The notes below the pieces were generated by a model. That model was not told the origin of the DNA. It did no database searches and saw nothing but the letters and a program-made list of their open reading frames with translations. DNA of 64,000 nucleotides from an uncultured delta proteobacterium (GTDB lineage: Bacteria > Desulfobacterota > RBG-13-43-22), in the NCBI GenBank assembly GCA_963843145.1, contig CAWJJC010000022.1, positions 192,001 to 256,000 of the forward strand, read 5' to 3'. This document shows positions 40,796-56,434 of this stretch, one piece after another; position 1 is the stretch's first letter, and each line of letters starts with the position of its first letter. The translations under genes and the position numbers were made by a program.

Positions 40796-42244
40796 TTAAT
40801 GACTCTCTTTTAAGCTATGCAGGCCTGTGCCCAAGGACTGATGGGCCGCTTCGAGAACCGCCTCGGACAGGGTGGGGTGGGCGTGGATGGTCCGCGCCAG
40901 ATCTTCCACCGTGGCCCCCATTTGGATCGCCAGGGTCCCTTCGGCGATCAGATCGGTGGCGTGGGGCCCGACGATATGGACCCCCACTATCCTCAGGTTT
41001 TTCCGCTCCGAAATGATTTTGACCTGCCCCACGATTTCTCCCAGGGCCTGGGGTTTTCCCAGTGCCCGAAAGGGAAAGCTGTCGGCCCGCACTTCCAGGC
41101 CCCGCACGCCGGCTTGGGATTCGGTGAGTCCCACGTTGGCTACCTCGGGGAAAGTGAATATTCCCGAGGGCACCACTTCGTAATCCATGGTCCGCTTACG
41201 GCCCATGATGTTTTCAGCGGCCAGGATCCCTTCGGTGGAGGCCACGTGGGCCAGCATGATCTTGGACGGCCCTAGGGCGTCCCCAATGGCATAGATCCCG
41301 GGGATATTGGTCTCCAGCCGTTCATTGGCCCTGATCCAGCCCCGGGTGTCCCGCTCCAGGCCCAAGGCCTCCAACCCCAGGACCTCGGTGTTTGACTGCC
41401 GTCCTATGGTGACTAAGACCTGCCGCACCTCCACCTCGACGGTTTTTTTATCCTTTTCTTTTGCTTCCACAAGAAAGGGGGAAGGCCCGATGGTAACCTT
41501 GACCCGTCCGTTTTGGACTGCTGTCTGTTCCACGGTCTTGTCCAGGTAAAGACGGATCTTCTTTTTTTTCATTTCCCGCTGCAGGACCGTGGAGCAGTCC
41601 CCATCCACCGAGGGCAGGCCGATGACCCGGGGCAGGGCCTCCACCACCGTCACCTGGCTGCCCAGGGCCTGGAAAATAAACGCGAATTCGCAACCGATCA
41701 CCCCGCCGCCGATGATCAGGATGGATTCCGGAATCGTTTCCAGGGTCAGGGCGTCGTTGCTGGAGAGGATGTGGGTCCCGTCAAAGGGAAAGGTCGGAAA
41801 GGCCAGAGGCCGGGAACCGGGAGCGAGGATCATTTTATCCACCGGGAATTTCTGTTCCCCGCCCTGGCTTTCCCGAACCTTGATCATCCAGGGATCGGCC
41901 ACGAAGGCCTGGCCCGAGACCCGTTGGATTTTATAGCTGCTCAGAATTTTTCGGATGCCCTGGACCAGGATCTGAATTACTTCATTTTTCCGGGCCATGA
42001 TCCGCTCCAGGTTGGGTTTGAAGCCGCCCTCCAGATCAATTCCCAATTCCCTCGCCCGGTGAAACTGCTCAAGGGCCTCGGCGGTGGTCCTCAGGGTCTT
42101 AGTGGGGATGCAACCCCAGTTCAGGCAGGTGCCCCCCACTTCCTCCTGTTCAAAAAGGAGGACCTCCGCCCCCAACTGGGCGGCGCGGATGGCGGCGATA
42201 TAACCCCCCGGTCCGGCGCCGATAATGCCGATGCGGATACTCAT
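40796..42244 (-). CDS. lpdA: Dihydrolipoyl dehydrogenase
   Basis: GAGPGGY, GGTCLNWGCIPTK, GGGVIG, HAHPTLSE. Confidence 0.95.
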   Translation of the reverse strand: MSIRIGIIGAGPGGYIAAIRAAQLGAEVLLFEQEEVGGTCLNWGCIPTKTLRTTAEALEQFHRARELGIDLEGGFKPNLERIMARKNEVIQILVQGIRKILSSYKIQRVSGQAFVADPWMIKVRESQGGEQKFPVDKMILAPGSRPLAFPTFPFDGTHILSSNDALTLETIPESILIIGGGVIGCEFAFIFQALGSQVTVVEALPRVIGLPSVDGDCSTVLQREMKKKKIRLYLDKTVEQTAVQNGRVKVTIGPSPFLVEAKEKDKKTVEVEVRQVLVTIGRQSNTEVLGLEALGLERDTRGWIRANERLETNIPGIYAIGDALGPSKIMLAHVASTEGILAAENIMGRKRTMDYEVVPSGIFTFPEVANVGLTESQAGVRGLEVRADSFPFRALGKPQALGEIVGQVKIISERKNLRIVGVHIVGPHATDLIAEGTLAIQMGATVEDLARTIHAHPTLSEAVLEAAHQSLGTGLHSLKESH

Positions 42245-42257: not shown

Positions 42258-42629
42258 TTAATTGGAGACCTGGGCGAGGTAAGCGGCCTCTTCCATCAGG
42301 ACATCGAATTCAGCCGGGTTTTTCAGTCTGACCCGGGTGATCCATCCCCGTTCATAAGGGGAATCGTTGATCAGGGTGGGCTCTTGATCCAGGTCCTGAT
42401 TGGATTCTATTACTTCGCCGCTTATCGGAGCGATGAGATCGGAAGTCACTTTGCTCGATTCCAGTGCCCCCAGCGGTTCTCCGGCTATAACCTCGGTCCC
42501 GGGCTCGGGCAATTCCACATAAATAATCTTGCCCATCTGCTCCTGGGCGAAATCGGAGATGCCGATGATGCCGATTTCGCCCTCTATTCGAATCCAGGCA
42601 TGGTCCGGATGAAATTTTAAGTCGGTCAT
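42258..42629 (-). CDS. gcvH: Glycine cleavage H-like lipoyl carrier
   Basis: HAWI, GISDFAQ, LESSK (lipoyl Lys), NDSPYERGW. Confidence 0.92.
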   Translation of the reverse strand: MTDLKFHPDHAWIRIEGEIGIIGISDFAQEQMGKIIYVELPEPGTEVIAGEPLGALESSKVTSDLIAPISGEVIESNQDLDQEPTLINDSPYERGWITRVRLKNPAEFDVLMEEAAYLAQVSN

Positions 42630-42736: not shown

Positions 42737-43324
42737 TTATTCCCTGGATTGGGAAAGATAGGGAGATTTCCCTTGGCAGGCTAAACAGATTCCTGGAGCG
42801 TCTGCCGGAAAGGATTCCTGACATTGGGGACAGACGACCCGTTTTCCCCGGGGCCTTTTTACCAGCAACGCGGGCTGAATCCGGATTTCCTGTAGGGAGC
42901 AGAGCGCAGGCCCGGATTCTTGGATAGCTTTCAGGAGTTGGCCGGAGTCCACTTCCTTTTTGGGTTTCAATTTGTAGTACCAGTCTTTGATTTCGGGCCA
43001 CTCTTCTACCCGGACCGGATTTAAAACCACCCTGGTCCCCGTCCCCGTTTCTTTATTGTAGAGAGCCAGGGCGAACCGACCCCAATCCTGAACCCTTAGC
43101 CACCCGTTGCCCACCGTACAGGGGGTCAGCAATTGAACGGCATCCGGCAGGCACTTATCGGTTTCACAAAGGGCATCATACAAAATATGATCCGGCAAAT
43201 TTTTTATGGCCAAATCGACCATGACTCCGCCCAGGATCACCCCGGGGGCGGGAAAACCATGGAAGGCCTTTACCCGGTCGACGAATTCCCCGAAAGCAAA
43301 CCGGCCAATCGTCTGGATCATCAT
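42737..43324 (-). CDS. FmdE family protein with C-terminal Zn ribbon
   Basis: FHGFPAPGVILG, ETDKCLPDAVQLLTPCTVGNG, CPQC..CLAC; likely start MMIQ at 43324. Confidence 0.88.
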   Translation of the reverse strand: MMIQTIGRFAFGEFVDRVKAFHGFPAPGVILGGVMVDLAIKNLPDHILYDALCETDKCLPDAVQLLTPCTVGNGWLRVQDWGRFALALYNKETGTGTRVVLNPVRVEEWPEIKDWYYKLKPKKEVDSGQLLKAIQESGPALCSLQEIRIQPALLVKRPRGKRVVCPQCQESFPADAPGICLACQGKSPYLSQSRE

Positions 43325-43421: not shown

Positions 43422-43634
43422 TCACTCCGGCAGGGGACGCAGGCAGTCCTGGGGGAAGCGGTACGTGCCCTTGCCTTCCACACTCACCTCGATCAAGGCA
43501 TCCGGATCGTTTTTGGAGGTATCCGGATCGGTGATGATCCCGTGGCGGCCCAGGTACTGGTCCATGTACTTCTCCCAGCCCTCGTCTTGGGATTTACAGA
43601 ATATCTCCACTTTTTGACCTCGGTGAAAAGCCAT
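43422..43634 (-). CDS. Small hypothetical protein (SH3/KOW-like)
   Basis: AAGGAG RBS; FHRGQKVEI...YLGRHGII...IEVSVEGKGTYRFP. Confidence 0.6.
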   Translation of the reverse strand: MAFHRGQKVEIFCKSQDEGWEKYMDQYLGRHGIITDPDTSKNDPDALIEVSVEGKGTYRFPQDCLRPLPE

Positions 43635-43673
43635 GGATGCGCTCCTTATTACAGCGGCCGCAGGCGGCCGGGG

Positions 43674-45839
43674 TTAGGCCGGGTGCATTTCCACATGGGC
43701 CCTGGCGGTCTGCTGGCGGGCACAGGCCTGGCACAAAGGCCGGGTGGTCAGGACCGGACCGACGCCTTGGGTCCGCTTCTGCAAAAATTCCAGGTACCGC
43801 GCCGGACCCAGGACCGCGCCACAATTCCGGCAGTATTCCAGCTTCTGGCGGTTTAAAATGGTGCCGCAGTAGGACAGAAGCCGCTCGTCGCCGCGGTCGA
43901 TGATGCGGAGGGCCTGGTTGGGGCAGTTGGCCGCACAGGCGCCACACAAGATGCAACGTTCGGCCGTCAACCGGAAGTCCGTGGGCGCCGGGTGATCGAA
44001 ATTCAGGAACCCGAAGTCCAGGGCGTCGATGCCCATTTGGTCCCGGCAGACCTCGACACACCGGCCGCAACGCAGACAGATGTCGCAGCGCAGGCAGCGC
44101 CGGGCCTCTTCCCGGACGGCGTTTTCGGGGTAGCCGAGCTCCACCTGCTGAAAGGTGATGCGCCGTCGTTCGAGGTTGAGCAGCGGCATTTTCGGACGCC
44201 GGAGGGTCATCTTGGTACTGGCCGGAACCTCGAGCCATTCCACACGCTCGCGACGCACCGGGACCGGCGGCATCTTAGGCTGGGGGATCCCGGAAAGGTA
44301 GCGGTCGATGGCTTCGGCGGCGCGCTTGCCTGCCCCAATGGCCTCGACGACCGTAGCCGGGCCGGTGACGGCATCGCCGCCGGCAAATACCCCGGGGATC
44401 GCAGTTTCCAGGGTAATGGGGTTGGCCAAGATGGTCTGGCGCCGCGACCATTTGAGGTCTTTTAAATCGTCCAGGCACTCCAGGCCGATGCGCTGGCCGA
44501 TGGCCGAGATGATCGTATCGGCCTCGATGAGGAAGTCACTTCCCTCCACCGGGACCGGAGAGGGGCGGTCGCTGCCTTCTTTCCGGATCATTTCCGCGCG
44601 GTGACAAAGCAAGCCGGTCAGACGGCCGTCCCGGCCGAGAACGGCTTTGGGGATGGTCAGGAACGACAGGACAATACCCTCCTCTTCGGCCTGGTCCAAT
44701 TCCTCGACATCGGCCGGCATTTCGTTCCGGGTTCGCCGGTAGGCTATGATTACCTCATCAGAGCCCAGCCGCAGACAGGTGCGGGCCGCGTCGATCGCCA
44801 CGTTGCCGCCGCCGACGATGACCGCCCGCTTTCCGGGAATCCGGTGGTCTCCCAGCGCCACCCGTCGTAGAAAGTCGACGGCCTCGATGACCTGCGGAAA
44901 ATCATTTTCCCCCGGGATGTAGAGCTTTAAGGACGCATGGGCGCCGATGGCCAGGAACAGGGCCTGAAAGCCCTCGGATTTCAAACCCTCCCAGGTGACG
45001 TCCCGGCCGTAGCGGGTGTTGAAGCGGAAGGCCACGCCCAGGTCCTCCAACATGGCCGCCTCGCGGTCGATGACCTCCCGGGGCAGCCGGTACCGGGGGA
45101 TGCCGAGCATCATCATACCGCCCGCCACCGGCTGCGCCTCAAACACCGTTAGACCATAACCTTGGAGCGCCAGATAGTAGGCCGCCGTCAGGCCCCCGGG
45201 ACCGGCCCCGATGACGGCGACGCGCCGGCCCCGGTCCGGCTTTTTAGCCGGGTTCCGGTATTGCCGGTCCGAGATGGCGCATTCGGCGGCAAAGGCCTTG
45301 AGAAACTTGATGGAAATCGGTTGGTCGATCCGGCCGCGCACGCACATGAACTCGCAGGGCCGGGTGCAGACCAGGCCGCAGACCCAGGGGAAGGGATTGT
45401 CGCGGCGAATGACCTCGATGGCTTCGGCGTCCTGGCCGAGACCGATAAGGTTCACGTAGGTGGGGACGTCGATCCCCGCCGGACAGGTCATCTGGCAGGG
45501 GGCCGGGACCAGACGGACGCAATCGCCAGTGATGCAGTTATGGGTCTGGATATGGCTGAGAAATACTTCCCGGTGATCATGAAGGGCGGATTGAATATAA
45601 TCTCCGGCCTCCTTGCTGACCGCATCCGGGCCCTCGTCGATTAACTCCTGGGACAGCGCGTTTAGAAAATCCAGATGCTGTTCGCCGGCTCTCCCCCAGG
45701 CGATATCATTCAGAAGCTGGCGCAACTCCTCGACCAGCCACCGGCTTTTCGGATCTTGGAGGAGGCCGGAATTCAGGGTTTCATCCAGTTGGGTTATACT
45801 TTGGCTGACCGGGCATGTGGTTACAGGCATAATCGCCAC
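43674..45839 (-). CDS. GltD/NfnB-like FAD/NAD(P)H oxidoreductase with degenerate NuoF-like N-terminus and C-terminal 2x[4Fe-4S]
   Basis: APCQMTCPAGIDVP, VCGLVCTRPCE, IGAGPGGL, GGGNVAIDAAR, YRRT, FAGGD, CDICLRCGRC, CILCGACAANCP. Confidence 0.9.
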   Translation of the reverse strand: MAIMPVTTCPVSQSITQLDETLNSGLLQDPKSRWLVEELRQLLNDIAWGRAGEQHLDFLNALSQELIDEGPDAVSKEAGDYIQSALHDHREVFLSHIQTHNCITGDCVRLVPAPCQMTCPAGIDVPTYVNLIGLGQDAEAIEVIRRDNPFPWVCGLVCTRPCEFMCVRGRIDQPISIKFLKAFAAECAISDRQYRNPAKKPDRGRRVAVIGAGPGGLTAAYYLALQGYGLTVFEAQPVAGGMMMLGIPRYRLPREVIDREAAMLEDLGVAFRFNTRYGRDVTWEGLKSEGFQALFLAIGAHASLKLYIPGENDFPQVIEAVDFLRRVALGDHRIPGKRAVIVGGGNVAIDAARTCLRLGSDEVIIAYRRTRNEMPADVEELDQAEEEGIVLSFLTIPKAVLGRDGRLTGLLCHRAEMIRKEGSDRPSPVPVEGSDFLIEADTIISAIGQRIGLECLDDLKDLKWSRRQTILANPITLETAIPGVFAGGDAVTGPATVVEAIGAGKRAAEAIDRYLSGIPQPKMPPVPVRRERVEWLEVPASTKMTLRRPKMPLLNLERRRITFQQVELGYPENAVREEARRCLRCDICLRCGRCVEVCRDQMGIDALDFGFLNFDHPAPTDFRLTAERCILCGACAANCPNQALRIIDRGDERLLSYCGTILNRQKLEYCRNCGAVLGPARYLEFLQKRTQGVGPVLTTRPLCQACARQQTARAHVEMHPA

Positions 45840-45864
45840 CCTTTAAGGTATCATTTCCTTATCC

Positions 45865-46653
45865 TTAGGCAACCGGTTTCCCGCCAAAGGTCTTGGCCAG
45901 TTTGGGAGCCGTGATACGGAGCTTTCGCTTCATAGAGAGCTTCGCACAAGAAGGGCAATGATGATGGGCTTCCTTTTCACCGGGATGACCGCCCTCGCTG
46001 GTCTTCACGTATTCCAAAAACCGTTCCGTGGCATAATACCGGCCGCAGATATCGCATCGTTCCAGGATGTGTTTCCCGATGATCTCGTCTCTGATCCGAA
46101 TGGTTCTTACCTGGCCTTCATCTTCGGAGAGAATCGCTTCGGTCGGGCAGATTTTGGTGCAGGTGCCGCAGCCGATACAGGTCCCCTCTTCGGAGGGGAC
46201 CACAAACGGCCGGCCTTCCCGCAAGACCATTTTCAGGGCCTGGGCGCCAATGATCTCCTTACAAACCCGGATACATAGTCGGCAACGAATACAGCCGTCG
46301 GGCTTTACCCCGGTCGTCAGGCTGAACTCCAATCCGATTTTATGAATAGCGTCCGCATGGGGCGCCAATTTCAGCAGATTGCCGATGGCCTCGTTTCTTA
46401 ACTGGTGGACCATGACGCTCTCGGTGGTGATCTCCATTCCCGCCCGTGGTTTTACCACGCAGGACAATCGGGTCCGGGGCGTCCCCTGGTTATCCTTGAC
46501 TTCCACCACGCAAAGCTTACAGGAGCCCCCCGGTGTCAAGGCCGGATGAAAACAGAGGTGTGGAACTTTAAAGCCTTTTTCCATTAAGACCTGGATCAGC
46601 CTTTTTTCTTCATTGACCTCAAAAGCCTGTCCGTTGATTTTAATGGTCACCAT
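45865..46653 (-). CDS. [2Fe-2S] plus 2x[4Fe-4S] electron-transfer subunit (NuoG N-terminus-like)
   Basis: PHLC...GSCKLC...LSC; CIRCRLCIRVC; CIGCGTCTKICP; CDIC/CPSC. Confidence 0.88.
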   Translation of the reverse strand: MVTIKINGQAFEVNEEKRLIQVLMEKGFKVPHLCFHPALTPGGSCKLCVVEVKDNQGTPRTRLSCVVKPRAGMEITTESVMVHQLRNEAIGNLLKLAPHADAIHKIGLEFSLTTGVKPDGCIRCRLCIRVCKEIIGAQALKMVLREGRPFVVPSEEGTCIGCGTCTKICPTEAILSEDEGQVRTIRIRDEIIGKHILERCDICGRYYATERFLEYVKTSEGGHPGEKEAHHHCPSCAKLSMKRKLRITAPKLAKTFGGKPVA

Positions 46654-46668
46654 CGAAGAGGTCCGTGG

Positions 46669-47190
46669 TTATTCGAGGAAGGCGCCACCCTTGGTGGAGG
46701 ACATGGCCATCGCATAGCGCTGTCTTTTCATCAGAGGCATCTTTTCCGTCATGCCAAAATCGAGACAGTGGGTCGTGCAGACGGTAACACAGGCTGGCTT
46801 CAGCCCCGCGTCGATCCGATCCATGCAGTAATCGCATTTAACCACTTTTCCGATTTCGGGGTTCCATTGAGGCGCTCCCCAGGGGCAGGCGGCAATACAG
46901 GTTTTACAGCCCACGCACAAGTCGTGATCCACAAAAACAATCCCGTCCTTTTCCCTTCTTTGCATGGCGCCCGTGGGGCAGGCTGCCACGCACCAGGGGT
47001 TTTCGCAGTGAAAGCAGGGCATGAAAATAAACGAGCCCCGCGGCAGGCCGTTGATAAATTTGGGGCCCACGGGTATAATTTGACAGGGCTTGGGCCCGAT
47101 GGGCAGGGATTTATTGCTTTTGCATTGAATTTCGCAGGAATGACAGCCGATACACTTCTGCTGGTCCTGCAATAAGAAATATTTACTCAT
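46669..47190 (-). CDS. 4x[4Fe-4S] subunit (PsrB/DmsB-like)
   Basis: CIGCHSCEIQC, CFHCENPWCVAACP, CVGCKTCIAACPW, KCDYC..PACVTVC. Confidence 0.92.
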   Translation of the reverse strand: MSKYFLLQDQQKCIGCHSCEIQCKSNKSLPIGPKPCQIIPVGPKFINGLPRGSFIFMPCFHCENPWCVAACPTGAMQRREKDGIVFVDHDLCVGCKTCIAACPWGAPQWNPEIGKVVKCDYCMDRIDAGLKPACVTVCTTHCLDFGMTEKMPLMKRQRYAMAMSSTKGGAFLE

Positions 47191-47298
47191 TTTTTGGCTC
47201 CCGTTATTTAGGACGATCGGCCAACGAGGATCGAAGCGGGTTGAGCGGCCGTGGCTTCATTCCCGGTCCAATCTGAAATCGTCCACAATTCATTCCGA

Positions 47299-49383
47299 TC
47301 AAGCCGGTTTTACGGTTATAAAGGTTTCGTGAAGGGCCGGGCTGCCACCGATCCGGTCGGAGAGGTTCTCCTGCAACACGGCGTCCGAGCAGCCCTTATG
47401 GAAAGCACGGGCGGCCAGGTTGGATTCATGGCCGAAACCATGGAGCATAAAGACCGCCTCCGGATGAATAAGCTCGGTCACCTTGGCCTTGAGTGTGCCC
47501 TCACCGACCTTGGAAGAAACTGTTACCTCCCGGCCGTCCAGAACGCCCAGTTCCTCCGCCTTTTGTTCATTGATCCAGAGCTCATTTTCCGGACAAATCT
47601 CGTTCAGGTAGGGATTATTCTGGGTGGAAAGGTGGGTATGCAGGGCATTGCGCCCCACCACCAGTCTGAACCGGCCCTCCGGCGGTGACGGTATGGGTTC
47701 ATAGGGCGGAAAGGAGGGGAACCCGGCGGTTTCCAGCAAAGAAGATTTGAATTCAATTTTACCGGAAGGGGTTTTGAATTTTATCCCATCTTTCCGATCC
47801 CAGAAAATTTGGTTTTTGGTGTAGGCGACAGAGCCCTTAGCCTCAAAATCCTCCAGGGTGAAACCGGTCCCTTCCAACTGCCAGGCGACCAGTTCCTCCA
47901 TGCTTCCGTAGGGAAAATATTTTCCAATCCCGATCCTTTCCGCGATCTGTTTAAGGATCATGGCCCCCTCCCGGGTATCGTAGCGGGGGAGCACCGCCTG
48001 CCTTCTTAAAAACATCTGCGGTTTCAAGCCATTGGCCTGCTGGACGCAGTCGGTTCGCTCCAGATAGGTGGATTCCGGCAACACCACGTCCGAATACCAG
48101 GCGATGTCGCTGGGGTTGATATCGATGGAGACGATCAATTCCAGTTTGCTCAAGGCTTTTTTGGTCAGGGTCGTATCCGGAATGGATTGAAGCGGATCAA
48201 ACCGAAAGGCGAGGAGCGCCTTGATCGGGTAGGGGTCCTCATTCAAGATTGCCTGGGGCAGCATCTGACCCACCCCGTGATTCGGGTCCGGCAAGGGGAA
48301 ATCCCGAGTGCCCACTTTGTCGAAGCGGGGAACCTCGATTTGGGGGAATTTCTGCTCGGTCAGTTTTCGGGCCGGCTGGCGGTCGACCGCTCCCGGTCCT
48401 TTCTTGAAAAAGAACCCCCCCCGGGCCTCGACACTACCCATCAGCGCGTTGAGCATCATGATGGAACGACGCATATAAATTTCGTTGGTTTGATTGGAGC
48501 CCCGATAACCGAAATGAAAGATAACCGAGGGTTTGTCCTGGCTGACCTCCCGGGCCAGGTCCACAATCTGTTCGGCGGGAATCCCGGTTTCCTTTTCGGC
48601 CCATTCCGGGGTATAGGGATAAATAAAATCCTGCAGTTCGGCCAGTCCCAGCACCCAACGGTCGACATAGGCCGCGTCATAAAGCCGCTCTTTGAGAATC
48701 ACCTGGATCAGGGCGTAATTGAGCGCCAGATCGGTCCCCGGCCGGATCATCCAATACCGGTGAGCCTTGGTGGCGGTAATGGACACCCGGGGATCGATAT
48801 AGGTCAGCCGAGCCCCTTTTCCCAGGGCCTCCATCGTCTGGTTAACCGCCTTGACCTCGATGGCCTCAAAGAGATTCCGGCCGTACAGGACCAGGTGCTT
48901 AGTGTTCTTGTAGTCCAGGCCCATCTGAGCGTCGGTGTACCCGAAAAGGCTACGGCAGGCCGTGTTGATCGAACCCTTGCAGAGGGCGTCATGGGTAAAA
49001 TGGTTCGGAGATTGAATGGCCCGGGCAAAGGTTTTGGTAACATGGGTGGCCAGTTGGGTGCGCTCGCCGAGGATCACACTGTGCCCCCCGTGGGCAGCCA
49101 TGACGGTTTTCAATCTCTCGGCTACATAATCCAGGGCTTGATCCCAGGAGACTTTTTTAAAGTGCCCCGACCCGCGCTCGCCGACCCGCATCAGGGGGTA
49201 CTTGAGCCGCTGATCGTCATAAAGCATGGAGATGCCGGCCGCCCCCCGGGGACACAGGCTTCCTTCCATTCCCGGCACGTGCGGGTTCCCCTCGATCCAT
49301 CGGACTTGCCCGTCCTTGACCAGCACCTTGATGGGGCAACGGACCGAACACATGAAGCACAGGCTATAAATTTCTTTTTCCAT
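47299..49383 (-). CDS. Mo/W-bisPGD oxidoreductase catalytic subunit, PsrA/PhsA-like, without Tat signal
   Basis: CFMCSVRC...LCPRG FS0 site, THDALC putative Cys ligand, IRPGTDLA, DVVLPESTYLER, HTH, HGFGH. Confidence 0.9.
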   Translation of the reverse strand: MEKEIYSLCFMCSVRCPIKVLVKDGQVRWIEGNPHVPGMEGSLCPRGAAGISMLYDDQRLKYPLMRVGERGSGHFKKVSWDQALDYVAERLKTVMAAHGGHSVILGERTQLATHVTKTFARAIQSPNHFTHDALCKGSINTACRSLFGYTDAQMGLDYKNTKHLVLYGRNLFEAIEVKAVNQTMEALGKGARLTYIDPRVSITATKAHRYWMIRPGTDLALNYALIQVILKERLYDAAYVDRWVLGLAELQDFIYPYTPEWAEKETGIPAEQIVDLAREVSQDKPSVIFHFGYRGSNQTNEIYMRRSIMMLNALMGSVEARGGFFFKKGPGAVDRQPARKLTEQKFPQIEVPRFDKVGTRDFPLPDPNHGVGQMLPQAILNEDPYPIKALLAFRFDPLQSIPDTTLTKKALSKLELIVSIDINPSDIAWYSDVVLPESTYLERTDCVQQANGLKPQMFLRRQAVLPRYDTREGAMILKQIAERIGIGKYFPYGSMEELVAWQLEGTGFTLEDFEAKGSVAYTKNQIFWDRKDGIKFKTPSGKIEFKSSLLETAGFPSFPPYEPIPSPPEGRFRLVVGRNALHTHLSTQNNPYLNEICPENELWINEQKAEELGVLDGREVTVSSKVGEGTLKAKVTELIHPEAVFMLHGFGHESNLAARAFHKGCSDAVLQENLSDRIGGSPALHETFITVKPA

Positions 49384-49550
49384 ACCTTCCTCGTCCAGCT
49401 TTCAGATAATCTTTATTGTTATTAAAAAGTTATAGAACTGCTTTTCTTCAAAAGCAAGCGCATTTATTAGCGACGATGGGCCCGAAGGACAGACCCTCTT
49501 TCTCTGAATAACATAAAACCCAGGTGGAATTGTATCTCCTCACCAATCGA

Positions 49551-49979
49551 TTACCAACCCTTATCGGTCATGATTTTCTTGATCTTCTCCTCCGTGGCCT
49601 TTTCCACTAAAATCATTTTCTTAGCCTGGGCCTTCTTGATTTTGTCCGTTAATTCCTGGAGATCCGCCGGCTTTTCCAGGAAATCCATGGCCCCCAATTT
49701 CATGGCCTCAATGCCCTTGGCCACTGTAGCGTGGCCGGTGAGTAAAATCACCTGCACTTCGGGTTTCTTCTGTTTGATGGCTTTCAGGGCCTCCAGGCCG
49801 TCCATCTCCGGCATCTGCAAGTCCAGAATGATGGCGTCAAAGGATCCCTCTTCCGCCATCTTCAGGGCCTCTTTAGCGGAACCGGCAGTGGAAACCTCGA
49901 TATCCCTGGCTTTCATCCGTTCTCCAACGGTCTCCAGAAAATCCTTTTCATCATCAACTAACAACACTTTTTCCGACAT
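49551..49979 (-). CDS. Single-domain response regulator
   Basis: LLVDDE, LDLQMP, LTGH, FLEKP. Confidence 0.93.
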   Translation of the reverse strand: MSEKVLLVDDEKDFLETVGERMKARDIEVSTAGSAKEALKMAEEGSFDAIILDLQMPEMDGLEALKAIKQKKPEVQVILLTGHATVAKGIEAMKLGAMDFLEKPADLQELTDKIKKAQAKKMILVEKATEEKIKKIMTDKGW

Positions 49980-50009
49980 GGGTTCGCTCCTTTCATTGAT
50001 TGAAACCGA

Positions 50010-50669
50010 TTAAACCGTATTCCCCAAAGTCAATTGAATTACTCCAGCCTGGGGATCAAAGCGCAACTCGGCCTTAAGGACTGCGGCCAAGGCTTCTTCC
50101 CTTTCCGTGGGAAAGGAATCCAAGGAATTATAATCAATCTCTTTAGAGCCGGTGAAGGTTATTTCTATCTGGTTAACCTTTTTGTGTGCGCCGATCAAAA
50201 TTTTTTTCTCTTTTCCCGCTGTCTTGAGGGCCTGATCCAGACAACACCAGATCAGATTTTCCAGGAAAAAGGGCCAGGTTAATAAGGAAATGGGCCCTGT
50301 GGCCGGAACGGCCTCCAGGGCCACCCCTTTTTGCGAAGCGTAGCGCTGGGCCAGTGCCAGGGTTAATTCCACCACCTCCCAAACCTCAACCACCATTTCC
50401 GGCTCATCGATGCTGTGGGCAAAGCGGTTAACATTTTTCATAATCCCGTCGGCCCGCTGGACCTGAGCCCGGATTCTTCCCGGCAACGAATTAAAAAGTT
50501 CCTGATTGAAGGGCTTTCCTTTGGCGGCCATCAGGATAAAATCATCCAATAGTCCCGCACTTTCGTTGATAATGGCCAAGACATTTTTTATTTCGTGCGA
50601 AACGGAGGCCGTCACCTTCCCGAAAAATTTCAAACCTTCCGGGCCGACCGTGTCCCAGGAACCGGCCAT
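50010..50669 (-). CDS. HisKA protein with degenerate ATPase domain (probable phosphotransferase)
   Basis: H-box ASVSHEIKNVLAIINE intact; no recognisable N-box Asn or DxGxG/G2 boxes; no sensor. Confidence 0.7.
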   Translation of the reverse strand: MAGSWDTVGPEGLKFFGKVTASVSHEIKNVLAIINESAGLLDDFILMAAKGKPFNQELFNSLPGRIRAQVQRADGIMKNVNRFAHSIDEPEMVVEVWEVVELTLALAQRYASQKGVALEAVPATGPISLLTWPFFLENLIWCCLDQALKTAGKEKKILIGAHKKVNQIEITFTGSKEIDYNSLDSFPTEREEALAAVLKAELRFDPQAGVIQLTLGNTV

Positions 50670-51040
50670 CAGTTTTCCCCTTTCCGATTGAGGAGGGTAT
50701 TCATTTTATCGATCAAGACCTGGATATCAATCGGTTTCACCAGGTAATAGTCCTCACCGGCCTCGGCCGTTCCCTTCCGGAAATCCTCTTCAGAGCCGTG
50801 GCCGGTGATAAAAATAAATTTCATCTGCGGATATCTTTCCTCCAATTTTCTTTTGAGGGAAAAACCGCTGATTTTGGGGATTTTAATATCCAGCAGGGCC
50901 ACATCATAGGATTTTTCTTCGACCTGTTTCAAGGCCGCTTCGCCGCTGGTGACCCAATCGGCTTCAATCCCTCTAAGATTCAATCGTTCCGCCAGAGTGG
51001 AGACCAGTTCCAATTCGTCGTCAACCAGTAGTACCCGCAT
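50669..51040 (-). CDS. Single-domain response regulator
   Basis: LLVDDE, LDIKIP, ITGHGS, YLVKP. Confidence 0.92.
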   Translation of the reverse strand: MRVLLVDDELELVSTLAERLNLRGIEADWVTSGEAALKQVEEKSYDVALLDIKIPKISGFSLKRKLEERYPQMKFIFITGHGSEEDFRKGTAEAGEDYYLVKPIDIQVLIDKMNTLLNRKGEN

Positions 51041-52775
51041 GGTGTTCTCCTTTTTTTTTCGGATGCAGCGGCAAGGTAATGAAAAAGGCGGTCCCCTTCC
51101 CTACTTTGCTCTGGACGAAAATTTGGCCGCCCAACTCCTGAACCAGGCCGTAGGTGACGGAGAGCCCCAGACCGGTACCTCCGCTCTGGGCCTTGGTGGT
51201 AAAAAAGGGTTCAAAGATACGCTTAATATCTTCTTCCGGGATTCCGCGGCCCGTATCGGCAATGCGAATGACAACGGAATCCGGATCTTTTTTTTGAATG
51301 GTGATCTCCAGACGGCCTCCGTCGCTCAAGGCGGCAAAGGCATTATTGATGATGTTGAGAAAAATCTGTTGCAACTTCCCCCGGTCGCTCTCAAAGGGGG
51401 GGACCCGGTCCAGCACTATTACGGAGATGTCAATACTCCGGTATTCCGCTTCCTTGCCGAGAAAGCCCAGGACCTCTTTAATGACTTCTTCCACTTCAAT
51501 CGACGACAGTCCGACCTCCATATGGCGGGCGAAACCAAGCATACGCCGGGTGATGGTAGAACAGCGCTCCACGGAGGAAAGAATGGAATCAATCAAACTC
51601 ATCAACCGGGGATTTTGGGTATATTCCTGCTTCAGGGCGAATAAGTCTTTAATCAACCCGGCTTTTTCATTAATAATGGCCAGGGGATTATTGATTTCAT
51701 GGGCCACCCCGGCAGCCAGTCGGCCGATAGAGGCCAGTTTGTTGGAATATTCGACCTTATGCAGGGTGGCCACCCGCCTTTGATCAGCCAGAAAGGTTCG
51801 GTTAACCAGATAAGTCGCCACCCCTAATATGACCAGGATTATCAAAAGGGAACTGAGCGCCAGGAAACCCAGCAACTCCGTCCGGGTTCGATACCAGCTT
51901 TTCATGAGCTGTTCTTTATGTTTGGCCACCATCAGGATAAAAGGGGTATCGGAGAGGTAGGCATAGCCGATGATGAGGGGTATTCCCGCCGGATCGCTTA
52001 TCTCCAGCACTTCGGTTTTTTTTGAAAAGGCGGGGACCGGCAAGGCGATCCGGGTCAGAATTTTTCCCTGAGAGGTGGAGGGCGTTTGAAGAATTCCTTT
52101 CCGGTTGATCAGAAAGGCATCCCCCAGCCCGCTGATCTCCAGATTCGATAACAGATTGTTAAAGCGTTCGGTATCCAAAGTGGCTCGAAGGATATAAAAT
52201 GATCCCCCGGGCAGGTCATGTTTTACCGCAATAACCAGATGGGGTAAATTGCGGAATCCTAAAAAGACGTCACTGATATAAATTCCCCGTTCAAGTACTT
52301 CTTTGAACCAACCCTGATCCCTGTAGTTCTTGCCTTCCAGCGGATAAGGGCCGATATAGGTCTTTTGCTCTCCGGCAGCGTCAATGATTCCCAGGTCTAT
52401 AAATCCCCCCACCCCGACCTTCTTCAGATTGGACAGCAGCCTTTGCAGCCTTTGAGGGTTGCTGAGGGCCTCCAGCGTATTGTCCTGGGCAATAAAGTCC
52501 AGAGCGGCTTTTCTTTCCTCCAGGAAATAGGATATCGATCGACGGGTATTGGAAGCCAGCCGGGAGGTTCGCAGCAGGATTTCCGATTCTATCGATTTTT
52601 GAGTGACCTGGTAATCGATGATGGCTAAAGAAAAAAGAGGAATCAGCGCAACGCTGGCGGTTAAGGCCACCGCTTGTATCCAGATCCGGCGAAAATTGAA
52701 CAAGTGGGGATAGGGGCCGGCGGCCACATCCAGGTGATCCCAAAATTTTGGTTTTATTTTATTCCAAAAGGTCAT
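51021..52775 (-). CDS. Membrane sensor histidine kinase with Cache-like domain
   Basis: 2 TM; YISDVFLG; AHEINNPL, QIFLNIINNA, DTGRG, FEPFFTTK, GTGLGL; likely start MTFWN at 52775. Confidence 0.92.
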   Translation of the reverse strand: MTFWNKIKPKFWDHLDVAAGPYPHLFNFRRIWIQAVALTASVALIPLFSLAIIDYQVTQKSIESEILLRTSRLASNTRRSISYFLEERKAALDFIAQDNTLEALSNPQRLQRLLSNLKKVGVGGFIDLGIIDAAGEQKTYIGPYPLEGKNYRDQGWFKEVLERGIYISDVFLGFRNLPHLVIAVKHDLPGGSFYILRATLDTERFNNLLSNLEISGLGDAFLINRKGILQTPSTSQGKILTRIALPVPAFSKKTEVLEISDPAGIPLIIGYAYLSDTPFILMVAKHKEQLMKSWYRTRTELLGFLALSSLLIILVILGVATYLVNRTFLADQRRVATLHKVEYSNKLASIGRLAAGVAHEINNPLAIINEKAGLIKDLFALKQEYTQNPRLMSLIDSILSSVERCSTITRRMLGFARHMEVGLSSIEVEEVIKEVLGFLGKEAEYRSIDISVIVLDRVPPFESDRGKLQQIFLNIINNAFAALSDGGRLEITIQKKDPDSVVIRIADTGRGIPEEDIKRIFEPFFTTKAQSGGTGLGLSVTYGLVQELGGQIFVQSKVGKGTAFFITLPLHPKKKGEHHAGTTG

Positions 52776-52940
52776 TTGATAACCTTGCAAAAAGTCAAAT
52801 AACGACTTTCTGCTCGGCGGGGGATCACGCCTTAGGCGTGACTCCCCCGCCAGTTGAAATGAATTCAAATGGTCCCACGCCCACCCCAGCCCGGCGCTTA
52901 ACCCCGCCGGAGGCGGGGCGGACTTTTTGTGAGTCCGTCA
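52776..52940. mobile_element. MITE/REP-like intergenic element with terminal inverted repeats
   Basis: Left TGATAACCTTGCAAAAAGTC versus right GACTTTTTGTGAGTCCGTCA; internal palindromes CACGCCTTAGGCGTG and CCCCGCCGGAGGCGGGG. Confidence 0.6.
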
Positions 52941-54152
52941 GCGCTGCCTCTGGATTTTCTCATTCGCCTGTTTGATGGTTTCGCTCAACAGATCCACATC
53001 CACCGGCTTTTGAAGATAGGCAAAGGCCCCCAAACTCAGACAGATCTCCTTATCCGTCTCCGACCCATGGCCGGTGAGAATGATGACTTCTATCAGCGGA
53101 TGGGTCTGTTTCACCCTTTTCAAGACTTCCATCCCATCGATGCCGGGCATTTTGAGATCCAAAATCATCACCTCGGGTTCATCTTCCCGGACCATACTCA
53201 GCGCCATTTCCCCGTCATAAGCTACCGCCGAGCCCATCTCCCGCAGCAGCAATCGCTCGGAAAGGGTTTGGACAAACTCCCGCTCATCATCCACCAGGAG
53301 TACTTTGGAGGGAATATCAAAATCGAATTTCCGGTAAATGTCGGACTGATGAAATTCCTGGCCCACTTTGGTCTCCACGGCAGTGACTCCCGGGATGCGG
53401 ACGGCGATGGATTTCAATTCCTCCTCCAAACGGCTCAACATTAAAACATGTTTATTGATGGTTAAAGTGATTTCCCCGCCCCGGGCTTCCACCTTGACCT
53501 GGTGCCCTTCCTTGGCCAAGGCTACTTCGACCTGGGCCGCCAAGGAAAAATCATCCACAGCCTTTCGGGAAGCCGCGCTGGGTTGAAGGATGTCTTTGGC
53601 TAAATTTTTCTCCACCAAGGCCAGGATTTCTTCCAGGTTCAGCTTGTCGGTGGGAATAATCATGTCATACAAGGAGGGGTCCCAAGGATCTTTTCGGCCG
53701 AATAAGGCCGCGACCCAGGCGGCGCAATCTTCGTCCTTCCGGTGAATTATTTTAAGGGCTTCCTGGGTGGAGAGAACTAAATCTTTTTGGGCGGCCGCCA
53801 CCCGGTTTTTCATGTCGGCAATCAGACAGATCCGCAGGGCATGGGATATCCTTTTAGGAACCAGTAAGCTGACCAGACCCTGTATCAGCAGGTTATCTTC
53901 CCGCAGCATTTCGGACATAACCATTTTAAGGTAGGCGATGGCCCGTTCCTTTTCGTGGGTGAATTGATTAAAAACCGAGGTTTTGGCCGAAAAAGCCCGT
54001 TCGATTTTGTTATCCGGCAAACCCGAAGCCTTTTTGGCCCGGGAAACAATATTGGTGTCCGACAAATGCCGGTATCCGGTTTTTTCCATCAACCGGGAGA
54101 CAACCTGATCTTCCCGACAATAGGTCCCGCTGAAGACGGTAATGATCGGCAT
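52938..54152 (-). CDS. Cytidylate-kinase-like domain plus small alpha/beta domain plus C-terminal receiver
   Basis: MPIITVFSGTYC, LRICLIA, DPSLYDMII; C-terminal VLLVDDE..LDLKMP..LTGHGS..LQKP. Confidence 0.85.
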   Translation of the reverse strand: MPIITVFSGTYCREDQVVSRLMEKTGYRHLSDTNIVSRAKKASGLPDNKIERAFSAKTSVFNQFTHEKERAIAYLKMVMSEMLREDNLLIQGLVSLLVPKRISHALRICLIADMKNRVAAAQKDLVLSTQEALKIIHRKDEDCAAWVAALFGRKDPWDPSLYDMIIPTDKLNLEEILALVEKNLAKDILQPSAASRKAVDDFSLAAQVEVALAKEGHQVKVEARGGEITLTINKHVLMLSRLEEELKSIAVRIPGVTAVETKVGQEFHQSDIYRKFDFDIPSKVLLVDDEREFVQTLSERLLLREMGSAVAYDGEMALSMVREDEPEVMILDLKMPGIDGMEVLKRVKQTHPLIEVIILTGHGSETDKEICLSLGAFAYLQKPVDVDLLSETIKQANEKIQRQR

Positions 54153-54310
54153 GGCAACCCCCTTATCTTTTACGCTAACCCCAGCCCAAAAAAATGTCAT
54201 TTTTTTGGCTGAAATAAAAACCACCTTAAAAGATTTAGAAAAATGTTTTCTATATTAGATTTTTACATCCATTGTTAGAGACAAAATCTCAAAACAATGG
54301 ATGTAAAAAT

Positions 54311-56434
54311 CTAAAGGTGACAAACCGCTAAGAGCGGACAATTCGTTTCTTCTTCCCCTTTATGGGTCAGGGGATAAATAGCACTAAGGGCCTGTTCCAT
54401 GGTCGGGTAAAAATGGTCTTCTCCGATTTTTTCCGGGAAATGGGTCCTCATCAGCACCTTCAACACGGTCTCGTTCACTCCGCTCAAGGAGAGATCCAAG
54501 CCGGCGCTGCGAATACGGTCCACCAGTAAGGATAGCGTTTCTTCCCCGGAGGCGTCAATATCATTGATGCCGTTGCAGACCAGGACCAGGTGTTTTAAGT
54601 TTTTCTTTTTCCGCATGAGGTCCATGATCTTGTCTTCCAGGTAGCTGGAGTTGGCAAAAAACAAGGGTCCCTCAAAACGGATCATGGCCAGATATTCACA
54701 TTCCTTCAAGCTATGGGTATCGGCACAACGCAGCGATTGGTCCTCATGCCGAGAGAGGGCGGCCAGCTTGGGCCGCATGCTCTTATAAAGGAAAACCAGA
54801 AGCGAAAGGACCACCCCCACCATAATGCCCTTGTCCAGATGGGGGGCAAAGGCCAGGGTGCAGAGGAAGGTAATGATGGAGATGAGCCCGTCATACCACT
54901 GGGCCTTCCAGGCGTGGACAAACCCGGAAACATTAATCAATCCGATGACGGCCATCATGATCACCGCCGCCAGTACCGACTGAGGCAGATGATAGAGCAA
55001 GGGGGTGAAAAAAAGCAAGACAATCACCACGGCCACGCTGGTAAAGGCGCTGGAAAGCCCGGTCAGGGCTCCAGCCTGCAGGTTGACGGCCGACCTGGAA
55101 AAGGAGCCGGAAACGGGATAGCTCTTGCCGACCGCCCCCACCAGGTTGGCCAAGCCCTGGCCGATCAATTCCTGGTTGGGGTCCAGGCGCTGCCCGGTTT
55201 TTCCGGCCATGGCCTTGGCGATCGAAATCGCCTCCATAAAACCTAACAGGGAAATAATGGCGGCAAAGGGCAAGAGATGCAAAAATACGCCGAGCTCCAC
55301 TGGAGGAACGGTAAAGGAGGGCAATCCCCGGGGGACCACTCCCACCACGGCGCCTCCTCCCATGACCAGGATTTTATCCTCGGGGATCGGTTTGTTCCCC
55401 ACCCGGATTCGCCAAATCCGACCGTCTCCCCGAAGTCCGGGAGGCCGCTCTGCTTTCAGATAGAAGGCCGAAGATCCATCCGCCCGGACCACATGCTCCA
55501 AAATCAAATTTCTGATATTCTGCCGCAATATTTGGGCCTGGAGCTTTTGTTCATCTATGTTCATGGCCAGGATATTTTGGGCATGTTCCGCCTGAAGCAA
55601 CCCCAATTTTTGGTGATTTTTTTTGGCTTCCTCCCTGGCCCGATTTAATTCGGTTCGTTTCGTTCCCAGGGTCGTAATCTCCCCGGTAACAAGGTTGAAT
55701 TGACGGATCAGTTCCTGGACCTGAGGGGAGCCTATTCGGGACAAATCCACTCGAAGGTTATGTTCCAGGCCAAAAGCCGCGGCCAACACCGTGGTAATCA
55801 CCACCGCCACCAGTACATTCGGGACCTTGGGCGCCAGCCTTTTCAGCCCGTACATGATGGCAAAGGCCAAAACCCCCATGAAAAATGTCGGCCAATAGGT
55901 GAATTGGTAAGCGGCCTGGACGACCCGCATGATGGTCTGGTAGTGGTGGTCGGCCGTATCCACTTCGACCCCGAACATCTTGGACAACTGGGAAGTGGCG
56001 ATAATAATCGCCGCGGCATTGGTAAACCCATTGACTACCGGGTGGGATAAGAAATTTACCACGAGGCCCAAGCGGAGGACGCCCAAGAGCAACTGGAAAA
56101 CGCCGACCACCAGGGCCAGCAGGATGGCATAGGCGATATAGGTATCCCCGCCGGCCGTGGCCAACGGCCCCAGAGAGGCGGCCGTCAGCAGAGAAACGAC
56201 GGCCACCGGGCCGGTGGCCAACTGACGGCTGGACCCGAACAGGGCGGCGATCATGGGGGGCAAAAAGGCCGCGTATAAACCATAATAACTCGGCAGGCCG
56301 GCCAACTGGGCGTAGGCCATGGATTGAGGGATGAGTACCAGGGCTACCGTCAATCCGGCCAGGGCATCGGCCCGCAAGCTATCCAGTCGATACCCTTTAA
56401 CCCAGCTCAAAAAGGGGAAAATACGGTATAACAT
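54311..56434 (-). CDS. SulP/SLC26 anion transporter with STAS domain and large insertion
   Basis: DALAGLTVALVLIPQSMAYA, GSSRQLATGP, NQELIGQG, SGSFSRSA, LFFAN, IDASG. Confidence 0.95.
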   Translation of the reverse strand: MLYRIFPFLSWVKGYRLDSLRADALAGLTVALVLIPQSMAYAQLAGLPSYYGLYAAFLPPMIAALFGSSRQLATGPVAVVSLLTAASLGPLATAGGDTYIAYAILLALVVGVFQLLLGVLRLGLVVNFLSHPVVNGFTNAAAIIIATSQLSKMFGVEVDTADHHYQTIMRVVQAAYQFTYWPTFFMGVLAFAIMYGLKRLAPKVPNVLVAVVITTVLAAAFGLEHNLRVDLSRIGSPQVQELIRQFNLVTGEITTLGTKRTELNRAREEAKKNHQKLGLLQAEHAQNILAMNIDEQKLQAQILRQNIRNLILEHVVRADGSSAFYLKAERPPGLRGDGRIWRIRVGNKPIPEDKILVMGGGAVVGVVPRGLPSFTVPPVELGVFLHLLPFAAIISLLGFMEAISIAKAMAGKTGQRLDPNQELIGQGLANLVGAVGKSYPVSGSFSRSAVNLQAGALTGLSSAFTSVAVVIVLLFFTPLLYHLPQSVLAAVIMMAVIGLINVSGFVHAWKAQWYDGLISIITFLCTLAFAPHLDKGIMVGVVLSLLVFLYKSMRPKLAALSRHEDQSLRCADTHSLKECEYLAMIRFEGPLFFANSSYLEDKIMDLMRKKKNLKHLVLVCNGINDIDASGEETLSLLVDRIRSAGLDLSLSGVNETVLKVLMRTHFPEKIGEDHFYPTMEQALSAIYPLTHKGEEETNCPLLAVCHL

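Follow-up and report, generated by a model that had tools for sequence, protein, structure and literature searches.

The polysulfide and thiosulfate reductases PsrABC of Thermus thermophilus (2VPZ) and PhsABC of Salmonella consist of a molybdopterin catalytic subunit with a twin-arginine (Tat) leader, an iron-sulfur subunit and an NrfD/PsrC membrane anchor that oxidizes quinol. The accessible part of a review lists the Psr, Phs and Srr enzymes as periplasmic (PMC10100899), and a Tat-bearing PhsAB is described in PMC6378623. Leaderless, anchor-less pairs, named PhsAB or PsrA2B2, are nevertheless already in print for several genera of Desulfobacterota and Campylobacterota, namely for Dissulfuribacter thermophilus, Desulfolithobacter, Desulfovibrio alaskensis (Dde_1076/1075), Desulfotignum phosphitoxidans (Dpo_3c03810/20) and Sulfurimonas, so that the statement in a preliminary description of the present locus that the characterized Psr, Phs and Ttr enzymes are periplasmic is dated. 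Here we analyzed this locus, an operon of five genes (A to E) in a 64,000-nucleotide stretch of DNA from an uncultured delta proteobacterium (the window; contig CAWJJC010000022.1, positions 192,001 to 256,000), and found that it genetically wires a PsrA/PhsA-like enzyme, anchor-less and probably cytoplasmic, to a flavoprotein of the NADPH type.

The A-B core of this operon is of the Tat-less, PhsAB-like kind already in print, while its wiring to a flavoprotein of the NADPH type appears to be new. In the accessible text of the published accounts, Tat-less PhsAB is a two-subunit protein, and no flavoprotein, WorA-like or SH3-like gene is mentioned beside it. The full-text literature, a scope that leaves subscription papers and supplements outside, yielded no PsrA/PhsA-like enzyme tied to a GltD/Nfn-type or Bfu-type module; PMC10553843 holds only an fdhF2-nfnB pair, and PMC11887813 and bioRxiv 10.1101/197269 likewise contributed nothing about such a system. 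With the respiratory PsrABC and PhsABC enzymes the operon has homologous A and B subunits in common, and A retains both the FS0 motif and a Cys at the position of the Mo ligand. The hallmarks of those enzymes are absent from the locus, as A lacks a Tat leader and no NrfD/PsrC anchor is encoded, and a flavoprotein would stand in the place of quinol as the electron source.

The operon is made up of five co-directional open reading frames (ORFs) on the minus strand of the window (43422-49383), with gaps of 108, 15, 25 and 39 nt at A/B, B/C, C/D and D/E, respectively. Gene A (47299-49383) encodes a protein of 694 aa which, judging from its Pfam, NCBIfam and PDB matches and its place in the tree, is a leaderless PsrA/PhsA-like catalytic subunit with a molybdenum or tungsten bis(pyranopterin guanine dinucleotide) cofactor (Mo/W-bisPGD). 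The N-terminus, MEKEIYSLCFMCSVRC, begins at the FS0 motif, and since the frame is open for only 700 codons, a leader has no room. No RRxFL-type motif is present in the first 60 residues, and alignments of A with Thermus PsrA and with the NCBIfam PhsA model start at PsrA residue 38 and model position 41, in both cases past the leader. None of the five proteins contains a twin-arginine motif, a transmembrane segment (19-residue stretch with a mean hydropathy of at least 1.6) or a haem motif, the sole CxxCH belonging to the first Fe-S motif of B, and a Pfam scan of ORFs between 38 and 57 kb of the window found no NrfD domain. The FS0 start, the 700-codon frame and the absence of these motifs and of NrfD argue for A as a cytoplasmic, anchor-less PsrA/PhsA-like enzyme. 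The ORF coordinates and the N-terminal sequence agree with the preliminary description, which had noted the start at FS0, the missing leader, the THDALC Cys and the lack of an encoded anchor or cytochrome.

A has all three domains of the PsrA/PhsA/SrrA lineage, namely FS0, molybdopterin and dinucleotide-binding domains, with Pfam matches above the cut-offs to Molybdop_Fe4S4 (PF04879, 50 bits), Molybdopterin (PF00384, 156 bits) and Molydop_binding (PF01568, 62 bits). PhsA is by far its best curated family (NF012032, 595.1 bits, followed by a family at 245 bits), and PsrA is its best PDB match (2VPZ, 388 bits). Within the motif FTHDALC of A, the HDALC residues align with VSLC of PsrA, whose Cys (173) we take to be the Mo ligand. 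His145 of PsrA, which presumably has a role in that enzyme, is aligned to a Glu in A, and the Arg332 region is poorly conserved; the comparison of the two active sites gave no usable signal for the substrate. The own genome of the operon contains 21 MopB-type matches, the nearest paralogue of A being 31-32% identical, and a profile search of this genome with NF012032 returned no match above the cut-off. The same search of a control genome found neither a locus nor a match above the cut-off. Among a set of 5.8 billion proteins, the best 120 matches listed are 76-93% identical to A and 684-714 aa long.

Gene B (46669-47190, minus strand) encodes a PsrB-like electron-transfer subunit of 173 aa with four predicted [4Fe-4S] clusters. 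It has a Fer4_11 domain, 18 Cys and neither a leader nor a transmembrane segment, matches PsrB (2vpw_B, 103 bits) and WorS (9mqx_E, 76 bits) in the PDB, and is 60-85% identical to its counterparts in related loci. Gene C (45865-46653, minus strand) encodes a putative WorA/BfuA-like connector of 262 aa with one [2Fe-2S] cluster, two [4Fe-4S] clusters and a C-terminal, zinc-finger-like group of four Cys. Its Pfam domains are Fer2_4 and Fer4, and its best PDB match, WorA (9mqx_A, 120 bits), covers the full length (residues 3-247 against 6-244), whereby C matches a BfuA-type subunit with a [2Fe-2S] N-terminal domain and [4Fe-4S] clusters. All 16 Cys of C are invariant in eight homologues, including the four at the C-terminus. 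A prediction of the B and C complex, made with alignments A2 and A3, scored 0.00 in two runs with controls not folded, and counts neither for nor against such a complex.

The match to WorA is of interest for the architecture of the operon. In the WorABCSL complex of Acetomicrobium mobile (9MQX), a pterin enzyme and a polyferredoxin are likewise joined by a small BfuA-type connector, and according to the accessible part of its report, the four-Cys zinc finger and the C-terminal helix of WorA recruit the polyferredoxin WorS. The catalytic subunit of WorABCSL belongs to the AOR family, whereas A belongs to the DMSOR family, and the WorBC module, with its flavin mononucleotide (FMN), NADH and ferredoxin, is replaced in the window by a GltD-like NADPH flavoprotein.

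This flavoprotein, D, is encoded on the minus strand at 43674-45839 with a GTG start and has 721 aa. It has the layout of NfnL/GltD-type proteins that bind flavin adenine dinucleotide (FAD), with a Fer4_20 two-cluster domain (PF14691, 64 bits) followed by the FAD and NAD(P)H Rossmann domains (Pyr_redox_2, PF07992, 98 bits) and, in addition, a C-terminal Fer4 domain. Two N-terminal and two C-terminal [4Fe-4S] sites are thereby predicted around the Rossmann domains. D scores 508.3 bits against the NCBIfam model PRK12771, just below the cut-off of 516, and its PDB matches comprise NfnA (9bov, 410 bits), a StnA-type chain (8oh5_C, 356 bits), NfnB (4ylf_B, 302 bits) and also GltD and DPD, with residues 106-590 aligning to the NfnL-like domain of NfnA and Stn. 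In these alignments, the AYRRT motif of D is the counterpart of LYRRT or IYRRT in the NADPH-binding NfnA/StnA-type chains; we assume that the Arg pair of YRRT binds the 2'-phosphate of NADPH, which would make NADPH the electron donor at D. This core is preceded by residues 1-110, which share 29% identity with the four-helix [4Fe-4S] domain of a NuoF/BfuB-like protein and form a vestigial bundle in which the cluster cysteines are replaced; on the C-terminal side, residues 586-713 are 30% identical to the module of C that comprises a cluster and the four Cys.

Comparison with NfnABC and Stn (9BOV, 8OH5) places these parts in context. NfnA carries a C-like N-terminal [2Fe-2S] domain, two [4Fe-4S] clusters and a pterin-less Fdh/NuoG-like domain; since its domains match C, D and the MopB part, the same building blocks appear to be fused in NfnA and split in the window. 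In contrast to NfnABC, the MopB partner in the window is a real PsrA-like enzyme with all cofactor domains, and NuoF and NuoE are absent. The accessible part of the NfnABC report describes NADPH bound beside an FAD, homologous to that of D, which ends the Fe-S chain and is judged incompatible with bifurcation, and it treats the fused Fdh-like domain as a pterin-less remnant. Electron bifurcation by D, raised in the preliminary description by reference to NfnB-type modules, is therefore unlikely, given the homology of D to the non-bifurcating NADPH/FAD arm of this closest solved relative. In addition, Pfam detected no NfnS/PyrK-like FAD/[2Fe-2S] small subunit among the neighboring ORFs. Neither a Complex1_51K nor a 2Fe-2S_thioredx domain, as expected of BfuB and BfuC, is present in A to E, the rest of the genome not having been searched for unlinked BfuBC; as no NuoF or NuoE subunit is encoded with A to E, the bifurcation site of the Bfu enzymes would be absent.

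Finally, gene E (43422-43634, minus strand) closes the operon. It encodes a conserved protein of 70 aa, probably an accessory subunit on the grounds of its predicted fold and synteny, for which no Pfam or NCBIfam family was matched. The AlphaFold2 model (mean predicted local distance difference test, 82.9) is an SH3-like barrel. Structure matches in VIA range from Z 9.1 to 7.5 and comprise Mind-bomb REP, PetP (8.7), KOW, PsaE (7.6) and NdhS (7.5), amid many KOW and Tudor matches, and the ESM Atlas feature score against the PetP family is 0.92. The modeling confirms the predicted fold of E as SH3-like, and the structure matches assign no function to it. Taken together, the Pfam domains, the AYRRT motif and this fold bear out the preliminary account of B as PsrB-like, C as a [2Fe-2S]/[4Fe-4S] protein, D as a GltD/NfnB-like flavoprotein with YRRT and E as SH3-like.

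To follow the operon among its relatives, we used the best 80 of 582 confirmed loci (out of 600 pattern matches), with ORFs called and clustered in flanks of up to 10 kb, and a sample of 301 Desulfobacterota genomes in which searches with A and with D were cross-read (L- and G-numbers below are our own labels for loci and genomes). Trees of A were calculated with FastTree for 102 rows and with IQ-TREE for 70 of these 102, seven long-branch representatives having been dropped and the AB-only rows and other representatives thinned. The A cluster comprises 73 rows, 49 of which have the FS0 motif at most 31 residues from the earliest possible start. A twin-arginine (RR)-type motif precedes FS0 in only eight of the 73, six of which are the rows with A at most 39% identical; four of these six have an NrfD gene, which was seen only in these four Tat-bearing loci. 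FastTree separated a Tat-less side of 72 rows (support 96) from a side of 30 rows that holds all Tat/NrfD rows, together with L090, P0122 and P0159, in which no RR motif was detected. The window's A, with its adjacent B, belongs to the Tat-less, anchor-less PhsAB-like clade, as do the Desulfovibrio- and Dissulfuribacterales-type loci, and lies in a subclade of 22 rows supported in both trees (FastTree 96; SH-aLRT 98 in IQ-TREE). The preliminary description had named three outcomes as contrary to it, namely membership of A in a characterized clade with the same partners, a co-purifying Tat-bearing partner or membrane anchor, and a lack of joint conservation; none of them applied. A is placed apart from the Tat/NrfD-type PsrABC enzymes and scores below the cut-off of the PhsA equivalog.

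The link between A-B and D is conserved. Of the 80 loci, 30 have D no more than 3 kb downstream of A-B, as found by tblastn with the window proteins, and these include every one of the 24 assessable loci in which A is at least 58% identical; L054 ends inside A and was not assessable, and L055 and L059, labeled as A-B only through ORF calls on the opposite strand, both contain D by tblastn. Among the 32 genomes with A at least 59% identical, 25 have D within 6 kb, counting G195, in which the contig begins inside a D-like fusion, and three (G024, G070 and G225) are not assessable because their contigs end. A second D-linked clade is formed by metagenome-assembled genomes (MAGs; L098, L099, L103, L105 and L110) labeled Chloroflexia, Bacteroidales, Acidobacteriota, Solirubrobacterales and betaproteobacterium. 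C was found by tblastn in 10 of the 80 loci and also in G264, and E, in copies 51-81% identical, comes right after D in 13 of the 80 genome_contigs loci and in another five regions from other genomes. The A-B-D-E(-C) layout recurs with 70-71% identity in two Desulfotignum MAG loci (L046 and L047). Of the claim that the genes are conserved together, A-B-D thus stands, and C and E are confined to a subclade in which D has about 720 aa. Across the genome sample, homologues of A at E <=1e-120 occur in 78 of 301 genomes (69 of the 259 of high quality), only some of which carry D. A-B-D is a real and conserved system within this clade, and the observation made in the preliminary description is confirmed, its interpretation overall being partly supported.

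This conservation bears on the reading that A-B and C-D-E merely occupy the same operon, with D acting in its own right as an NADPH:ferredoxin or glutamate-synthase-like oxidoreductase. Paralogues of the GltD type are plentiful (282 of the 301 genomes have a match at E <=1e-60), and A-B stands alone in many genomes, as such a reading would have it. We nevertheless consider it very unlikely, since nearly all members of the clade, which spans several orders, show the adjacency, a second clade shows it as well, the genes are tightly spaced, the partner modules of D are swapped at the same position after A-B, and C and D have a WorA-adaptor-like module in common at their C-termini. The conserved adjacency, the second D-linked clade, the likeness of D to NfnA and that of C and B to WorA and WorS together argue for A-B being wired to D.

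The module that follows A-B varies among relatives. In the genome sample, the A most similar to that of the window (77% identical; G145, L133, G145:C56:1-7400) is followed after B by a NuoE-like ORF, a NuoF/HydB-like protein of 593 aa (Complex1_51K, 149 bits; NADH_4Fe-4S; two Fer4), a C-like gene and a copy of C with 59% identity, which from its domains is a Bfu-type NADH/ferredoxin cassette replacing the GltD-like D. In Desulfobaccales-type loci (L048-L053, L056, L063 and L137), D has about 1130 aa, a NuoF-like region with a weak FMN domain, SLBB and NADH_4Fe-4S being fused to the GltD-like part, and C and E are absent. A sister clade with A 43-48% identical (Caldimicrobium, Desulfobulbus, Ca. 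Desulfobia and others) has nuoA, B, C, D, H, I, J and K, and L/M-type genes, directly after A-B in seven loci (L064, L066, L069, L082, L089, L106 and L107; A-B match at about 10001-12600 or equivalent) with no nuoEFG between, and the PhsAB-like pair might there act as electron module for a Nuo complex of 11 subunits.

Partners of the D type, with 58-64% identity to the D of the window, also adjoin a divergent A (42-48%) of another subclade, in L062, where E is 73% and C 48% identical, in G206:C3 (about 3282633-3287871) and in G236:C58 (about 13039-19000). This suggests that catalytic and electron-input modules may have been exchanged between subclades. In the window itself, the G+C content of 43674-49383 is 0.54-0.625, compared with about 0.51 for the whole window, and A and D are only 59-62% identical to the versions in genomes of the same genus and family, A being 74-77% identical to proteins of other families, whereas the flanking FmdE and Lpd genes are 70-75% identical within the window's own family. 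From these contrasts it looks like a foreign version of the cassette replaced the original in place.

We propose that A to D, possibly with E, form a soluble cytoplasmic complex which is fed by NADPH and reductively cleaves thiosulfate or polysulfide, a proposal to which we give about an even chance. NADPH would be oxidized at the FAD of D, and electrons would pass one at a time through the [4Fe-4S] clusters of D, the Fe-S clusters of C and the four clusters of B to the Mo/W-bisPGD of A. There, an inorganic sulfur-sulfur compound would be reductively cleaved, most probably thiosulfate, to sulfite and sulfide, or polysulfide. E would be a small SH3-fold accessory subunit, either structural or serving as a dock for a redox partner such as ferredoxin. 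We infer the complex and the order of the electron path from synteny, homology and analogy with NfnABC and WorABCSL, and the substrate from the family of A, its neighbors and the literature on its relatives. In a sulfate reducer, intracellular thiosulfate, imported or formed as a by-product of sulfite reduction, could in this way be used without the quinone pool.

Thiosulfate or polysulfide is suggested as the substrate by the best family (PhsA) and best structure (PsrA) of A, by TauE-family neighbors and by data on Tat-less relatives. A TauE/SafE-family permease, usually with a small partner of two or three transmembrane segments, is found near A in 30 of the 73 rows; among the eight RR-motif rows this holds only for L103, whose motif is doubtful, and for none of the six rows with A at most 39% identical. 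As for the relatives, in Dissulfuribacter thermophilus a PhsAB-like enzyme described as cytoplasmic, with neither a Tat leader nor PhsC, belongs to the proteins that increase most in thiosulfate disproportionation, according to the accessible text of the report, whose authors give its donor and function as unknown (PMC13490349); the sister clade to which this proteomic link to disproportionation refers is about 44% identical to A. Homologues of the Dissulfuribacterales-type L086 are found in Dissulfurimicrobium, Desulfolithobacter, Desulfurivibrio, Desulfocapsa and Thiovibrio, all with about 704 aa, and the proteins of named disproportionators cluster with it. As far as the accessible parts of the respective papers go, phsAB mutants of Desulfovibrio alaskensis have mild fitness defects on thiosulfate (PMC4215793), PhsAB is annotated in Desulfotignum phosphitoxidans (PMC4046663), a Desulfobulbus epibiont transcribes phsAB at a high level (PMC7117923) and Sulfurimonas is reported to use a cytoplasmic psrA2B2 (PMC10045233).

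Several points weigh against the proposed complex and its substrate. A falls under the PhsA cut-off of NF012032 (595 against 694 bits), and the tree was built without characterized PhsA, SoeA, SreA (bSreA) or SrrA sequences. Four of the 32 close genomes have A-B without D: in G266 and G035 A-B is alone, in G105 it is followed by an Lpd-type gene and in G145 by the Bfu-type cassette. C and E are absent from many D-linked loci, so that a composition of five subunits is not general. The TauE-like permease of the own genome lies 71 kb from the operon, and the published data come from sister clades that share only 42-45% identity with A. Finally, with standard potentials of about -402 mV for thiosulfate and -320 mV for NADPH, the transfer of electrons from NADPH to thiosulfate is uphill and would require product removal, which the sulfite reductase of a sulfate reducer could supply, or a second donor of lower potential.

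Such a second donor is the basis of an alternative by electron confurcation or bifurcation, in which NADPH at D and reduced ferredoxin, at E or at the C-terminal ferredoxin domain of D, jointly drive the reduction of a low-potential substrate such as thiosulfate, or in which the oxidation of a low-potential substrate reduces both. The potential of thiosulfate given above would fall between those of NAD(P)H and ferredoxin in vivo, for which the accessible part of the WorABCSL paper gives about -280 and -500 mV. NuoE-like, NuoF-like and two WorA-like genes follow A-B in G145, the D of the Desulfobaccales type is a NuoF-like/GltD fusion, and the window's D keeps the vestige of a NuoF four-helix bundle beside a WorA-like C. 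Moreover, the SH3-fold matches of E include PsaE and NdhS (Z 7.5-7.6), which we take to be ferredoxin-docking subunits; the SH3 fold is very common, however, and Z values of 7-9 are within the background range. The window operon also lacks an FMN/NuoF or NuoE subunit. In the accessible Bfu and NfnABC literature, the bifurcation site consists of FMN and the B1 and C1 clusters, and the FAD homologous to that of D is non-bifurcating; the vestigial bundle has lost its cluster ligands. We regard this alternative as unlikely.

The direction of catalysis could also be reversed, with a cytoplasmic dehydrogenase oxidizing sulfite to sulfate like SoeABC, or another reduced oxyanion, and passing electrons to NADP+. 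The TauE/SafE neighbors belong to a family named for sulfite export, and the sulfite/sulfate couple, at about -516 mV, could reduce NADP+. According to accessible portions of the literature, cytoplasm-facing, sulfite-oxidizing Mo enzymes exist (SoeA, listed with bSreA in PMC10100899) and the GltD-like FAD site is reversible in Nfn enzymes, but the same review treats bSreA/SoeA as a lineage of its own. The best curated and structural matches of A are PhsA and PsrA, direct oxidation of sulfite would short-circuit sulfate reduction in a sulfate reducer, and the phenotypes and proteomics of relatives indicate thiosulfate. An oxidative role is, in our view, quite unlikely.

Alternatively, the same architecture may act on another substrate, such as selenite, arsenate, tetrathionate, trithionate or an organic S- or N-oxide, in detoxification or assimilation. 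In what is accessible of the literature, the PsrA/PhsA/SrrA lineage spans polysulfide, thiosulfate, selenite and archaeal sulfur reductases, which sequence alone cannot separate, and both the score of A under the PhsA cut-off and its Glu at the position of PsrA His145 fit such a shift. Sulfur oxyanions are favored by the TauE/TSUP neighbors, by the occurrence of A mainly in sulfur-cycling Desulfobacterota (78 of 301 genomes) and by the data on relatives, and we consider a different substrate improbable.

The nearest system in function that the literature yielded is the flavoprotein NAD(P)H-dependent polysulfide/thiosulfate reductase of Thermotoga maritima, which the accessible text of its report likens to archaeal NAD(P)H-dependent enzymes (PMC9431562). 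The overall chemistry and location proposed for the operon, cytoplasmic and driven by NAD(P)H, are those of this enzyme too. It is reportedly of the pyridine-nucleotide-disulfide-oxidoreductase type, without a molybdopterin subunit.

The genes around the operon differ in how far they accompany it. Downstream, on the same strand, lie an FmdE-like protein with a treble-clef zinc finger, possibly a maturation factor (42737-43324; PF02663 and PF23475), the lipoyl carrier GcvH (42258-42629; PF01597; TIGR00527, 126.6 bits, above the cut-off) and a dihydrolipoyl-dehydrogenase (Lpd)-type flavoprotein (40796-42244; TIGR01350, 511 bits, above the cut-off). A 70%-identical FmdE-like copy follows A-B-D-E in G229 (L141), and FmdE-like matches occur near A in L094, L101 and L102. 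The Lpd-type gene is a recurrent downstream neighbor: within the window's family, two out of five other genomes carry it in this place with 73-75% identity, G229 after A-B-D-E-FmdE and G105 (L136) directly after A-B, without D. GcvH was rejected as a conserved partner, as it lies beside the operon in the window only and not in related loci.

Upstream, a cassette of five genes (49551-54224) encodes by Pfam a response regulator, a 219-aa protein, a second response regulator, a dCache histidine kinase and a cytidylate-kinase-like/receiver protein, which are candidate regulators of the operon. A similar cassette (histidine kinase, receiver, a protein of about 215 aa, receiver; 37-49% identity) lies upstream of a 44%-identical Tat-less A in L112. 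Behind the five regulatory genes, 4.9 kb from the operon, is a SulP/STAS anion permease (54311-56434; PF00916 and PF01740). The preliminary description had taken it for the importer of the substrate; no cluster common to it and at least three related loci was found, and it was dropped as a conserved partner, the TauE family being the recurrent one instead. The TauE/SafE-like permease of the own genome, outside the window (G000:C22:310914-314963; L126, L132), is 62% identical to the copies adjacent to A elsewhere and lies beside a small membrane partner, a sigma-54 activator and an Fe-S protein of 1013 aa.

A search for sigma-54 promoter patterns with at most two mismatches gave 20 matches where 23 were expected, none of them within 49384-49550. 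Scans for sigma-70 promoters and terminators from 40.3 to 50.1 kb remained at or below the shuffled controls, with one weak promoter-like site at 49557-49529. Elsewhere in the window, dnaA is apparently split into two overlapping ORFs (29918-31260), with DnaA_N and the ATPase in 29918-30787 and the C-terminal domain in 30748-31260, which could be due to a frameshift or a sequencing error.

The operon bears on how sulfate reducers and disproportionators cleave thiosulfate, at which face of the membrane they do so and which electron donor they use, and the conserved NADPH flavoprotein offers a concrete, testable donor for one large subclade and a direct handle on the cytoplasmic step. Because the thiosulfate couple is of low potential, its reduction with quinol is energetically hard, and the loss of the anchor would be explained if the enzyme were coupled directly to NADPH, to ferredoxin or to a proton-pumping module. 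In a broader picture, which we put forward as speculative and rather unlikely, the window would be the NADPH-only end member of a modular series in which one thiosulfate-reductase-like Mo enzyme is combined with interchangeable modules (a GltD flavoprotein, a NuoF-GltD fusion, a Bfu cassette or an 11-subunit Nuo), giving the first Psr/Phs reductases driven by NAD(P)H or ferredoxin, partly by confurcation, with E as a PsaE/NdhS-like ferredoxin dock. If this were true, these reductases would catalyze the initial, cytoplasmic step that is missing from thiosulfate reduction and disproportionation. The locus further connects the Fdh-like remnant of NfnABC and Stn, which lacks the pterin, with a working Mo enzyme, and this bears on the evolution of the Bfu type. 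Should the substrate be a different one, the operon would still encode an uncharacterized NADPH-dependent molybdoenzyme with relatives in about a quarter of the sampled Desulfobacterota genomes.

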